Positions 10,790 through 36,275 of a DNA stretch of 64,000 nt are shown one piece after another. Source of the DNA: a virus; the IMG/VR virus record IMGVR_UViG_3300030060_007423, positions 106,802-170,801 of that record. One strand, given 5' to 3'. Both the position numbers and the translations under genes were made by a program. How positions within the stretch are numbered: position 1 is the stretch's first letter; every line of letters begins with the position of its first letter. The notes beneath the pieces were generated by a model, which had not been told where the DNA came from, did no database searches, and saw nothing but the letters and a program-made list of their open reading frames with translations.

Positions 10790-10923
10790 CAATAGATTAA
10801 CATTAGATTAATATAATTGTAGCATATTTTCTATATTTATTAATATGGAAACCAAAAAACTTGATATAACTCCTGCAATTTATGTAACAATAATGATTGT
10901 TGTATTCCTATTAGCACTCTAAT

Positions 10924-11001
10924 TGTTAATAACTTTTTTAGCTTTTTTTAGAAAAAAGTCTCCCAAAAATTTTTTTTTCCCAATAATTCTAGTTATATTT
11001 A
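10924..11001 (+). promoter_or_regulatory. TGTTAATAAC box + CCCAA-N8-GTTATATTTA promoter
   Basis: TGTTAATAAC 10924-10933; CCCAA 10979-10983; GTTATATTTA 10992-11001. Confidence 0.7.
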
Positions 11002-18333: not shown

Positions 18334-18386
18334 TAATATAATTGGTTCGGATAGAAATTAAAAATTAAAACAAAAAAACGTCGCTT

Positions 18387-19592
18387 ATGAAAAATGTAAT
18401 CTTAAAAGCTGGTCTTAACGAGAGTGGTAAACCAGTATTGACTGACAAGGTTGGCAATCAGTTTGAATGTCCTGTAAAGGATAAAGCCAACAAACAAAAA
18501 TTAACGTGGGCTGTTAAAAAAGAAGCCTATGTAAAAGTAATAATGAAGGAGGGCGGAGCCATGTCCTACTCAGTATCTAATAGTAGTACTGAAAAGGATT
18601 GGACTAAAGATGCCACGTCTATATTGACAGACCAGTGGTTGAATAAACCTGCTGCTAATGTACCTGCTGAACAGGCTGAGGTAATGGCATTCATTCAGAA
18701 ATCTCCTGAGTTAAAACCAGATACTCTTAAGATGCAAGACCTTAAATGGAAATATCTTGTTAGGTCTGCAATGAGAGGTAAAAATATTATGATGACTGGT
18801 CCTGCAGGATGTGGTAAAACTATGGCAGCTAAAACTGTTGTGAACGCATTAGACAGACCAGAATTTTATTTCAACCTTGGGGCAACTCAAGATCCTAGAG
18901 CTACCTTAATTGGTAATGTCCACTTCAATAAAGAGAGTGGTACGTTCTTCTCTGAATCAATGTTTGTGAAAGCAATACAGACTGAGAATGCTGTAATACT
19001 CATGGATGAGCTTTCACGTGCTCACCCCGAGGCTTGGAATATATTAATGACTGTATTAGACGAAGGTCAGAGATACTTAAGGTTAGATGAAGCTGATGGC
19101 TCTCCAACTATTAAAGTAGCTCCAGGTGTAACATTTATCGCTACTGCCAATATAGGTAATGAATATACAGCGACAAGAGTTATGGACCGAGCGTTATTAG
19201 ACAGGTTTATTATTGTAGAGATGGATACTCTAAATGCTTCTGAGGAGTTTGAGTTGTTAACAAAACTATTTCCTAATGTGGATACTAAAACAGTTAACGC
19301 CATATCTGAAATTGCTCATGCTACTAGAGTTGAGGTTAAGAGTGAAGTTGCGAGAATCTCTACTTCTATTTCTACCAGAGCTTGTGTTGAAATGACTAGC
19401 CTTGTTTACGACGGGTTTAGTTTAACAGAAGCTGCTGAGGTTATTATGTATCCACAATACGATGATGCGGGTGGAGCTGATAGCGAAAGAACATTCGTAA
19501 AACAACTTGTACAGAAATTCTGTGACGATGGTACCGATGAAGATTTATTCAACACTGAAGATGTTGACGGTGCTGATGACAACCAGCAATAA
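18387..19592 (+). CDS. MoxR/CbbQ/NirQ-type AAA+ ATPase
   Basis: GPAGCGKT Walker A, ILMDE Walker B, IATAN sensor I, DRALLDRF Arg finger. Confidence 0.9.
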   Translation: MKNVILKAGLNESGKPVLTDKVGNQFECPVKDKANKQKLTWAVKKEAYVKVIMKEGGAMSYSVSNSSTEKDWTKDATSILTDQWLNKPAANVPAEQAEVMAFIQKSPELKPDTLKMQDLKWKYLVRSAMRGKNIMMTGPAGCGKTMAAKTVVNALDRPEFYFNLGATQDPRATLIGNVHFNKESGTFFSESMFVKAIQTENAVILMDELSRAHPEAWNILMTVLDEGQRYLRLDEADGSPTIKVAPGVTFIATANIGNEYTATRVMDRALLDRFIIVEMDTLNASEEFELLTKLFPNVDTKTVNAISEIAHATRVEVKSEVARISTSISTRACVEMTSLVYDGFSLTEAAEVIMYPQYDDAGGADSERTFVKQLVQKFCDDGTDEDLFNTEDVDGADDNQQ

Positions 19593-19610
19593 GCGACGAT
19601 TGCTAAGAAG

Positions 19611-28418: not shown

Positions 28419-28606
28419 TGATAATTCCAGAACAATACAAAAATGATTTGGATAAAATATATGAAAGAACTAAAAACTCTAATGAAAAAATGTTAATGGA
28501 ATTCAAAAAGTATTTTATGAATGTTGAACCAAAGGAGTTAAATTCAGACTGGGCATGGGTAGCAACACAATGTTATCATGTATATAAAAATAAATCTGAC
28601 CGCTAG
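28415..28606 (+). CDS. Hypothetical protein
   Basis: 63-aa coupled ORF ending at the tmRNA 5' boundary. Confidence 0.45.
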   Translation: MMIIPEQYKNDLDKIYERTKNSNEKMLMEFKKYFMNVEPKELNSDWAWVATQCYHVYKNKSDR

Positions 28607-28822
28607 TACTTATGTCAGCTGCATTCTTGGACCCGGGTTCGAATCCCGGCATCTCCACTAAAACCCATTATGATATGGGGATGACACGGATTTGACAGGA
28701 TGATAAGAGCATAAGGAAGGTCACCGCAACAACTGGCGAACAAGTTGAAATGGCGATGGCAGCGTAGTACGCTCCCTGACCCGAACGGTATAAAAGAGGT
28801 CATGTCGTAAAAACCTCGGAGG
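28596..28822 (+). ncRNA. ssrA: Circularly permuted (two-piece) tmRNA; tag (A)GEQVEMAMAA*; outer boundaries approximate
   Basis: T arm CCGGG-TTCGAAT-CCCGG and 3' acceptor strand CATCTCC-A (28633-28657) precede the 5' strand GGGGATG (28677-28683) with G3.U70; D-loop GGATTTGAC; helix 2 pairings; tag ORF 28735-28767. Confidence 0.9.
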
Positions 28823-28842
28823 ATGGTAGGTAAACTATAATT

Positions 28843-29586
28843 ATGAGCATAGAAACAAAATATTTTTCAATTGACGATTTATATAACGTAGATAACAAAT
28901 CTTCGTTTTGGAAATTTATAGAGGGCGAAGTAAAAGTTGCTTTAAGTAAATCTTCAATGTCAAGTTCAAAAAAAGCAGATGCTCTTAATCTATTTAAGAA
29001 ACAATATATTAAAAAGTTTTTTATAAGACATACTAAATCACCAAGTGATTATAATAAACCTTGGGATTTAGATAAATATGACCTAGAGTCAATTAAAAAT
29101 AATACAGATGGTCAATGGGCACCACCACCTAATGCTGATGACTATAGGTTTGATTTAGAAAATGCTCAATATGTAATTGAAAAATTTATATGGATGCAAA
29201 TACACCCAGATGATAGAAGGGATTTATTTGATAATGATATTGATAAATTTGATGACTGGGTTGTAACATTATCTGAATCACAAATAGATGAAGTTGTACA
29301 AAAAATTCAAAATGGTGAAAGACTAGGTGATCTTGATTATGAAAGTATAAAGGATTCACTATATGAACTTGATGATGGTACAATCAGAGTATTTAAGATA
29401 GACGGATTAATGATTATGTCTTCACTAAATAAAGATTCGCTGGAAACAGCATGCGTAAAAATCTTTATGAAGAAAGGTATAACATTTAAGTATAGAACAA
29501 CTGAAAACTATAAAGGAAAAACTGTACACTCCTATATATTTAGGATTGACGGACGTAATGACAATAAAAATGACAATATGTCATAG
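28843..29586 (+). CDS. Hypothetical protein
   Basis: 247-aa ORF. Confidence 0.6.
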   Translation: MSIETKYFSIDDLYNVDNKSSFWKFIEGEVKVALSKSSMSSSKKADALNLFKKQYIKKFFIRHTKSPSDYNKPWDLDKYDLESIKNNTDGQWAPPPNADDYRFDLENAQYVIEKFIWMQIHPDDRRDLFDNDIDKFDDWVVTLSESQIDEVVQKIQNGERLGDLDYESIKDSLYELDDGTIRVFKIDGLMIMSSLNKDSLETACVKIFMKKGITFKYRTTENYKGKTVHSYIFRIDGRNDNKNDNMS

Positions 29587-29612: not shown

Positions 29613-29646
29613 GTATATTAATTAAAGGTTATATAATGGTTATATT

Positions 29647-30152
29647 AAGTGTACTGAGTAGGCACAAAATTAAAATTATCTAAGGAGATTAATTATGGGA
29701 AATTATTTTTTACATGAGCGGTTGTTTCCAACCGACTTATTTTTCAAAAACTTTTTTGATACACAAACTGAGTTTCAATCGTTTGCAGATGTTAAGCCAC
29801 AATATCCAGTTGATATTATGGTAACAGATTATGCACTAACGTTTGATATTGCATGTGTTGGTTTGGACAAAAAAGATATAACATTAGACGTTACTGATAA
29901 TACCTTACGGGTTATCTATGAAAAACCAAACATTGAATCAAATCCATCTGATGAAGATGCAGGTGAATATATCCATAGAGGTATTACTCGGAAGAGTTTT
30001 AATATGGGTTGGAAAATTGCACCACGGTATGATTTGAGTCAAATAGAAGCAGTTATGAAAAACGGATTGTTAAGTATAACAATTCCATTGTTTGAAGAAG
30101 CAAAACCAAAAACAATTAAAATTAAATAAATAGTGTTTTACTCAGTACACTT
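29647..30152. repeat. Inverted repeat enclosing hsp20 (arms 29647-29665 and 30133-30152)
   Basis: AAGTGTACTGAGTA/TACTCAGTACACTT 14 bp perfect, extendable with G.U pairs. Confidence 0.8.
29695..30129 (+). CDS. Small heat-shock protein (Hsp20/alpha-crystallin)
   Basis: YPVDI, IACVGLDKKDI, YIHRGITRKSF, AVMKNGLLSITIP, KPKTIKIK. Confidence 0.93.
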   Translation: MGNYFLHERLFPTDLFFKNFFDTQTEFQSFADVKPQYPVDIMVTDYALTFDIACVGLDKKDITLDVTDNTLRVIYEKPNIESNPSDEDAGEYIHRGITRKSFNMGWKIAPRYDLSQIEAVMKNGLLSITIPLFEEAKPKTIKIK

Positions 30153-30160
30153 TTTTTATT

Positions 30161-30394
30161 ATGAACTATAGAATATTCAAACATAATAACAAGTTATATA
30201 AGGTATTAAGAGAAATACCACAAAGCAATTGTGACCCACGACTATATGGTATCAATTCAAATGATTTTATGAAGGTATTACATGTTTGGAAGGAATGGTG
30301 TTTAGCAGACCATGTATTACGAACTGCTAAAGGGGAAGAAATAGTATTTTTACTATGTGAAACAATACAAGAAGCTGAAATAATATCAGAATAA
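30161..30394 (+). CDS. Hypothetical protein
   Basis: 77-aa ORF. Confidence 0.5.
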   Translation: MNYRIFKHNNKLYKVLREIPQSNCDPRLYGINSNDFMKVLHVWKEWCLADHVLRTAKGEEIVFLLCETIQEAEIISE

Positions 30395-30434
30395 ATTGTA
30401 TTGTTTTTATATTTATTAAATAAAGGAGAAAGTT

Positions 30435-35903: not shown

Positions 35904-36275
35904 ATGGAAAAGGATTTAGAAATATTTAGTGGAAAAACATTCTCTGGTTTACTCAAAGACATTTATACAAATGCAAAAGCCAAAGAACGACAAATTGACA
36001 TTTTAATTAAAGAATTAAAACCGTTGATAAAAAATATTGGCGATGCAACAGTTATCGTTCCACTTATAAAAGACTACTTAGATATTGCAGTAAAAAATGA
36101 TGATCACTTAATTAAGATGGCTGCAATTGTTCAACGTGCTACACAGCGAACAGAAGCTGGTGAATCCTTAATTTTAACTGATGAGGAAAAGAAACAACTC
36201 CTCGAAGAAGTTGAAAAAATTGAAGAAAATATAGAGGATAAATCAAGTGGCAAAGATACTAAGACACGGGTATAG
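35904..36275 (+). CDS. Conserved hypothetical helical protein
   Basis: VPLIKDYLDIAVKNDDHLIKMAAIVQR. Confidence 0.6.
   Translation: MEKDLEIFSGKTFSGLLKDIYTNAKAKERQIDILIKELKPLIKNIGDATVIVPLIKDYLDIAVKNDDHLIKMAAIVQRATQRTEAGESLILTDEEKKQLLEEVEKIEENIEDKSSGKDTKTRV

Follow-up and report, generated by a model that had tools for sequence, protein, structure and literature searches.

Predicted long-range pairing between the 5' and 3' flanks of an hsp20 gene in large marine phages

Known RNA thermometers of small heat-shock genes, such as ROSE, fourU and the Synechocystis hsp17 leader, are short local hairpins of marginal stability in which the Shine-Dalgarno sequence or the AUG is occluded. Phages use the RNase III of their host to cut polycistronic messages. 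Pairing between the two untranslated ends of one message is, to our knowledge, described for few bacterial transcripts (RNAIII, icaR and hbs) and for none from a phage. In the hbs mRNA of Bacillus subtilis, a 14-bp pairing of the 5'-UTR with the 3'-UTR modulates leader cleavage by RNase Y (Braun, Durand and Condon 2017, PMC5737220). In the icaR mRNA of Staphylococcus aureus, pairing of the 5'-UTR with the 3'-UTR gives rise to an RNase III site (Ruiz de los Mozos 2013, PMC3868564; review PMC7821165).

We analysed a 64,000-nt stretch of viral DNA (hereafter the window), in which the flanks of an hsp20 gene display, at the level of sequence, 5'UTR-3'UTR complementarity of the hbs and icaR type. 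As in hbs, the predicted long-range pairing joins the leader of a short and strongly translated monocistronic message to its trailer and leaves a strong Shine-Dalgarno sequence free; in hbs, the effect of the pairing is on RNase access and stability and not on ribosome binding. The two differ in that hbs belongs to the host and its pairing overlaps an RNase Y site inside a structured leader, whereas the hsp20 unit belongs to a phage and its 5' arm lies almost at the predicted transcript start. They also differ in length (14 bp in hbs against 19 pairs in the window and up to 45 in its relatives) and in the kind of support, which is experimental for hbs and comparative for hsp20, with covariation across more than 100 loci. 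The likeness to icaR consists in a 3' UTR that pairs with the 5' UTR of its own mRNA, the icaR duplex being a substrate of RNase III. In icaR, however, translation is repressed and the ribosome-binding site masked by the 3' UTR, whereas the Shine-Dalgarno sequence and AUG of hsp20 both lie outside the helix. Our literature search found no paper describing the paired hsp20 arms, which we call the clamp, and no UTR-UTR pairing with broad comparative support. As judged from the comparisons given below, the clamp is a phage-borne and unusually well-supported case of the rare intramolecular 5'/3'-UTR pairing.

The window belongs to the record of a linear virus, 170.8 kb long and ~80% complete. Its large genes all lie on the + strand and code, among other things, for a baseplate wedge protein, a DNA ligase and a MoxR/CobS-like ATPase, which makes this a large marine myovirus. 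The hsp20 gene has a strong Shine-Dalgarno sequence, and a contig look-up found exact matches to its protein only in DNA assemblies from marine metagenomes. It is followed by a 77-aa ORF that is probably expressed by read-through from hsp20, and a promoter box stands after this ORF at positions 30409-30416. Directly 5' of that box, at 30360-30406, a local hairpin with an 11-bp perfect stem (AAACAATACAA/TTGTATTGTTT) and a T-run is probably the real terminator of the transcript carrying hsp20 and the 77-aa ORF. About 0.9 kb 5' of hsp20, the window also contains a phage-borne, circularly permuted (two-piece) tmRNA at 28608-28767 (28566-28858 according to ARAGORN), which scores 65.6 bits with the Rfam model tmRNA_permuted (gathering score 47) and has the predicted tag peptide GEQVEMAMAA.

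An earlier note on this DNA had pointed out that 14-nt arms on the two sides of hsp20 are perfectly complementary and can be extended by a GGCAC block. A repeat finder reproduced the first part in full: AAGTGTACTGAGTA at 29647-29660 is the reverse complement (100%) of positions 30139-30152, the two arms are separated by 478 nt, and no other site in the window matches the 14-mer with two or fewer mismatches. The extension pairs as well, GGCAC (29661-29665) facing positions 30133-30138, provided that one T of the TTT at 30136-30138 is bulged, a small correction to the note; the order is G.U, G.U, bulge, C-G, A-U, C-G. The extended helix comprises 19 pairs with this single bulged T, and its duplex energy is -24.7 to -26.7 kcal/mol. 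When positions 29628-30160 were folded as a whole, the long-range helix was present in the minimum-energy structure. No Rfam family matched at the hsp20 arms.

Table 1. Features of the hsp20 locus, in window coordinates.
Feature	Positions	Strand	Basis
Degenerate promoter box ATATTAAT (cf. ATATTTAT)	29613-29620	+	Comparison with the exact box of relatives
11-nt duplication GGTTATATAAT / GGTTATATTAA	~29628-29649	+	Creates TATAAT at 29632-29637
5' arm AAGTGTACTGAGTAGGCAC	29647-29665	+	30-48 nt 5' of the hsp20 AUG; covarying arm at the matching place in related loci
Shine-Dalgarno sequence TAAGGAG, outside the helix	29681-29687	+	Sequence; nearly invariant in the 77-locus alignment
hsp20 ORF, 144 aa, small heat-shock protein of the alpha-crystallin family	29695-30129	+	PF00011, E = 3.1e-12 (Pfam)
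Weak local hairpin, 5 pairs, 10-nt loop	30132-30151	+	-3.0 kcal/mol
3' arm GTGTTTTACTCAGTACACTT, one T bulged	30133-30152	+	Begins 4 nt past the hsp20 stop codon
Unpaired part of the T run 30151-30157, after the 3' arm	30153-30157	+	Sequence
77-aa ORF 3' of hsp20, without a promoter box of its own	30161-30394	+	ORF list

Perfect 14-mer inverted repeats within 3 kb of each other occur as three pairs in the window and are not rare by themselves; the case therefore rests on the position of the arms, on their conservation and on their covariation. Position was assessed with a bracket score, defined as the best helix between the 80 nt upstream and the 45 nt downstream of an ORF, which we computed for 81 ORFs on the + strand. 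The hsp20 gene obtained a score of 35, the highest of all 81, against a maximum of 26 in a null set of 600 mismatched ORF pairs.

For conservation, related hsp20 loci were collected from viral and marine metagenome contigs, 115 of them with a complete ORF and both flanks, and the 150 nt upstream were searched for helices with the 70-80 nt downstream. All 115 carry a helix in the matching place. Its versions number 63 and fall into about ten unrelated arm sequence types, with a median ungapped score of 32, where shuffled or mismatched flanks give 18 and the shuffled ones reach 27 at most. Thirteen loci are exceptions in appearance only: in ten, the 3' arm comes after an inserted DUF2061 gene, and three have a helix with one mismatch. 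The arm types include AATACAGGCAGGTT, GATACAGACAGGTT, CTGCGGGTCAGT, CACTGCGGGTTGGA and AACGTACTAAGTGGGCG, each with a matching partner past the stop codon, as well as CAGTAGGTTGGGTGTC, GGTGGACTGGA, GACCTTAGGGCGC, CTTTAGGGCAC and others, again each with its matching 3' partner. With extensions, the helices of the relatives have a median of 23 pairs (range 10-45, 10th-90th percentiles 17-36), interrupted by small bulges, and a median duplex energy of -29 kcal/mol.

Covariation was counted on the window-type and AACGTACTAAGT-type loci with both arms aligned independently; a single MAFFT alignment of 77 whole units places the arms of the different lineages in different columns and was not used for pair counts. 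Within the 14-bp core, four pairs are altered on both sides (G-C to A-U, U-A to C-G, etc.) and non-pairs make up 1 in ~290 cells, the related loci being phylogenetically non-independent, so that event counts are overstated and p-values optimistic. The earlier note had suggested looking for compensatory changes in related phages, and it had considered that homologues might lack the repeat. The outcome was strongly positive, with pairing kept through complete turnover of the arm sequences, and every one of the 115 loci retains the helix. A clamp that persists in more than 100 environmental relatives despite such turnover is about the strongest evidence for a functional RNA helix that sequence can offer.

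The mismatches within the helices carry information on the pairing molecule. In a symmetric comparison, internal oppositions were G:T in 37 cases and A:C in 9, for an expected ratio of 1.25 from composition (binomial p = 4e-4), and a stricter rule that demands three Watson-Crick pairs after the mismatch gave 4 vs 1. Helices became longer in 23 cases when G.U was allowed, as in + strand RNA, and in 2 when A.C was allowed. The excess of G:T over A:C therefore indicates that the pairing takes place in sense-strand RNA. From these comparisons, we consider it highly probable that the arms are the two halves of a selected long-range helix in the sense-strand RNA.

The arms keep their place with respect to the whole unit. 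Across the relatives, the 3' arm starts between -2 and +21 nt from the last stop codon of the unit, and the 5' arm ends roughly 20-60 nt 5' of the AUG, which leaves the Shine-Dalgarno sequence free. In the ten loci with a gene for a DUF2061 membrane protein of 68-79 aa (PF09834, E = 9e-22) 3' of hsp20, the 3' arm is found 221-251 nt downstream, a few nucleotides past the DUF2061 stop codon (gene coordinates 876-1082 in L010, 3410-3619 in L089, 1041-1259 in L044 and 2988-3197 in L132). In no fewer than five arm lineages, the gene has been inserted after hsp20 and before the 3' arm, and one arm type occurs both with it (L089) and without it (L032). Gain or loss of the gene has therefore taken place within the helix, with the clamp staying where the unit ends. 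As located by these comparisons, the predicted helix brackets the transcription unit rather than the hsp20 ORF alone.

This arrangement is specific to hsp20 among the genes around it. The bracket scores of 25 neighbouring gene families are at background (medians 14-18), with at most 11% of the members of a family above the 95th percentile of the null. A nucleotide search of a phage collection with the locus gave no match, and a protein search of the same collection returned distant hsp20 genes only, from cyanophage S-8S53 and pelagiphage HTVC115P, whose flanks contain no comparable helix (scores 23 and 17). The clamp therefore belongs to the hsp20 clade of the window and not to phage hsp20 genes generally.

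Other origins of the helix were considered and rejected. Chance, a general habit of the genome and a relic of insertion into the loop of a terminator were all ruled out by the controls (shuffled and mismatched flanks, the 81 ORFs and the neighbouring families) together with the compensatory changes.

A separate observation concerns the leader of some relatives. In L035, L107, L126 and their relatives, a second small local hairpin lies between the 5' arm and the Shine-Dalgarno sequence, with a compensatory change (GTTAAA..TTTAAC vs ATTAAA..TTTAAT); it is absent in the window's own lineage.

We then located the probable start of the message. Of 84 distinct loci, 55 have an exact ATATTTAT box 5' of the 5' arm and 1 has it at the mirrored site; with one mismatch allowed, the former count rises to 73 of 84. 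From the end of the box to the core arm there are 4-25 nt (median 16) in the relatives, and in several lineages the extended helix starts 2-8 nt past the box. A decayed box and the 11-nt duplication are shared by the window and L002, its closest relative. Both promoter candidates of the window, the degenerate box and the TATAAT, lie 5' of the arm, and we infer from the comparison with the relatives that the ATATTAAT copy acts as a promoter.

Within the window, the sequence ATATTTATA is present in 14 copies, all on the + strand and just 5' of ORFs (for example at 10995, 11539, 18047, 18327, 19715 and 23899), where ~4 would be expected over both strands; none of 100 shuffles reached 14. Several copies are embedded in a longer repeated cassette composed of a T-run and CCCAAT(A/T)ATTCTAGTTATATTTATA, which is similar to the terminator/promoter cassettes (PeSLs) known from T4-type phages. 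Some boxes are followed by a ribosome-binding site only 6-9 nt later, and the ORFs 10845-10922 (a 25-aa hydrophobic peptide) and 35904-36275 (123 aa) start 4-5 nt past the promoter box, a spacing which suggests that their messages are leaderless. Since ribosome-binding sites and start codons come so soon after the boxes, transcription probably starts within ~6 nt of the box. With the box 4-25 nt before the arm, the 5' arm would therefore lie at or near the 5' end of the message. The earlier note had named a transcript start downstream of 29665 as an outcome that would speak against it, and the box 5' of the arm in 73 of the 84 loci argues against such a start. Both arms would then be carried on one transcript, as we infer from the placement of the boxes.

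The earlier note had read the pairing as a thermoswitch. The gene invites this reading, as it encodes a small heat-shock protein and this class is often under the control of RNA thermometers, and it is tempting to assume that a structure beside a heat-shock gene must be a thermometer; here, the assumption is wrong. The predicted mean pairing probability stays at 0.95-0.96 over the whole range from 10 to 65 °C, the energy is -25 to -27 kcal/mol (-29 kcal/mol for the median relative), and neither the Shine-Dalgarno sequence nor the AUG is in the helix. The former starts 16 nt past the end of the 5' arm (29665) and is largely unpaired in the predicted ensemble (four of its eight bases with an unpaired probability of 0.77-0.96), a layout that holds in all lineages. 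What the clamp has in common with ROSE, fourU and hsp17 is a cis-acting RNA structure on a small heat-shock gene; whereas those elements are local and only marginally stable, it is long-range, very stable and leaves the Shine-Dalgarno sequence free. A long-range thermometer that melts when hot and thereby changes hsp20 expression thus appears extremely improbable. The same note had proposed that the helix competes with a hairpin formed by AGTGT (30132-30136) and ACACT (30147-30151) followed by a run of seven T (30151-30157), and that end-to-end pairing controls termination, read-through or stability. The hairpin can indeed form, but at -3.0 against about -25 kcal/mol it does not qualify as a switch partner of the helix. 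It is limited to loci of the window arm type (L002, L003, L008, L009, L011 and L013), no counterpart was found in the other arm types (median z -0.84 over 77 distinct loci), and a terminator scan did not detect it; it does not answer to an intrinsic terminator, a GC-rich and compact hairpin with a U tract straight after it. Termination could also involve the helix itself, either as a split intrinsic terminator, in which the 3' arm, the distant 5' arm and the U run would enclose a very large loop, or as an anti-terminator that sets read-through. Seven T follow the 3' arm in the window and L002, 20 of 60 distinct helices have a T-run after the arm, and the local hairpin and the long-range helix have nucleotides in common. 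However, 35 of the 60 possess neither a T-run nor a terminator, the AUG of the next gene coming directly after the 3' arm, and another 5 have a separate canonical terminator just 3' of the arm. The 77-aa ORF, having no promoter box of its own, needs read-through anyway, and the hairpin that an anti-terminator would oppose is both weak and not conserved. We therefore regard a terminator or anti-terminator role as unlikely. Across these loci, neither melting nor switching between terminator and anti-terminator is conserved. From the earlier proposal, the toggle is lost with its -3 kcal/mol hairpin, while an effect within the general class of termination, read-through or stability survives as the best class of explanation.

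Two further readings concern the arms as DNA and as an aid to translation. Inverted repeats could be the ends of a mobile or invertible cassette, or the product of template-switch ('quasipalindrome') repair, with no role in RNA. The neighbouring genes of the hsp20 region do vary between lineages, and T4-type phages shuffle genes by means of repeated regulatory cassettes, the PeSLs, which are likewise short regulatory sequences framing accessory genes in variable regions of large myoviruses (PMC2839356, PMC4122927). PeSLs, however, are direct repeats of a promoter and a local stem-loop that are common to many genes and act by DNA recombination, whereas the hsp20 arms are inverted, unique to their unit and to one place in the window, and covary as an RNA helix. 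The asymmetry between G:T and A:C (37 vs 9) is unexpected for pairing in DNA, the promoter stands outside the repeats, and no recombinase or transposase was found among the neighbour families. No inversion with respect to the promoter box and the neighbours occurs in the 115 assembled loci, the recognisable neighbours are all co-directional, and the exact box keeps to the 5' side (55/84 vs 1/84 mirrored). A purely DNA-level feature is accordingly quite improbable. In a closed-loop model of translation, the helix would bring the stop codon within ~20-50 nt of the ribosome-binding site, and terminating ribosomes would re-initiate on their own message. This would give the high output needed by a stoichiometric holdase, and it fits the conserved geometry (3' arm -2 to +21 nt from the stop codon, 5' arm 20-60 nt before the AUG, free Shine-Dalgarno sequence), including the shift of the arm to the end of the last gene when DUF2061 is added. 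Yet phage genes are tightly packed, which would put the arms close to ORF ends in any case, and the only precedents found in the literature are engineered circular mRNAs, with none from bacteria; we hold this model to be unlikely too.

The reading that we favour, with a probability of about 0.5 in our estimate, is that the clamp sets the processing or stability of the hsp20 mRNA. A stable duplex with its 5' arm near the transcript start, its 3' arm past the last stop codon and a free ribosome-binding site suggests an action on RNases and not on ribosome binding. The helix would close the whole coding unit (hsp20, or hsp20 and DUF2061) into a loop of ~480-700 nt in which the ribosome-binding site stays free. 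As a near-perfect duplex of about two turns, it would be a natural substrate for the double-strand-specific RNase III of the host, whose cutting would free the hsp20 message from read-through transcripts, and the two ends of the message could remain paired after the cut. In addition or instead, the duplex may hide the 5' end, and the 3' end where a terminator follows, from end-dependent nucleases. The lifetime and level of the hsp20 mRNA would thereby become independent of its neighbours. Because many lineages must transcribe on into the next gene, cutting by RNase III is favoured over simple shielding, and with 35 of 60 arms directly before the next AUG, protection of the ends alone cannot be the general role.

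Known stems of this kind provide partial parallels for a processing clamp. Like the stems of rRNA operons, the hsp20 arms form from the flanks a helix of about two turns that could release an RNA from a longer precursor; the rRNA stems enclose non-coding RNA, whereas the hsp20 arms flank an ORF. The RNase III sites of phage T7 are local hairpins between genes and not arms on either side of an ORF. Compared with both, the clamp is a candidate RNase III stem, recognised here from its sequence. Stems cut by RNase III usually have roughly 20 pairs or more, compared with 19 and one bulge in the window and a median of 23 among the relatives. Some observations weigh against this role. Some helices are short, and the contiguous pairing of 10-11 pairs in L006 and L067 is below the usual length of an RNase III substrate unless the interrupted extensions count, and the promoter box of the window itself is degenerate. 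A family search found no RNase III gene in the phage record, so that cutting would depend on the host, and the sole match to RNA ligase in the record was the DNA ligase, below the family cut-off.

A bolder and more tentative proposal, to which we give limited credence, is that of 'panhandle messages', in which a gene-specific clamp would excise and lock chosen messages (hsp20 and apparently the MoxR/CobS-like ATPase) out of pervasive read-through. If true, the looped mRNA would be unusually long-lived and efficiently re-translated, a natural counterpart of engineered circular mRNAs, and the clamps would amount to a general layer of gene control in phages, so far unrecognised and open to detection by sequence alone. 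For hsp20 itself, the conserved clamp suggests that marine phages may tune their chaperone supply post-transcriptionally. The unit of ~520 nt with its two short arms also offers a clean and portable test system, for which compensatory mutants are easily designed, to ask how end-to-end pairing affects the processing, lifetime and translation of a bacterial mRNA.

The MoxR/CobS-like ATPase gene of the window (18387-19592) is also bracketed, over positions 18379-19598. Its 5' arm, CGTCGCTTAT, extends over the start codon (it contains the AT of the ATG), and the pairing partner ATAAGCGACG lies at the stop codon. The best bracket helix of 56 related viral loci scores 24 in the median, compared to a background of ~16-18, and its arms covary, as in the combinations GAGTTATGAAAAA/TTTTTCATAGCTC, ACCCCTATGAAAA/TTTTCGTAGGGGT and CGGTTATGAAAA/TTTTCATAACCG.
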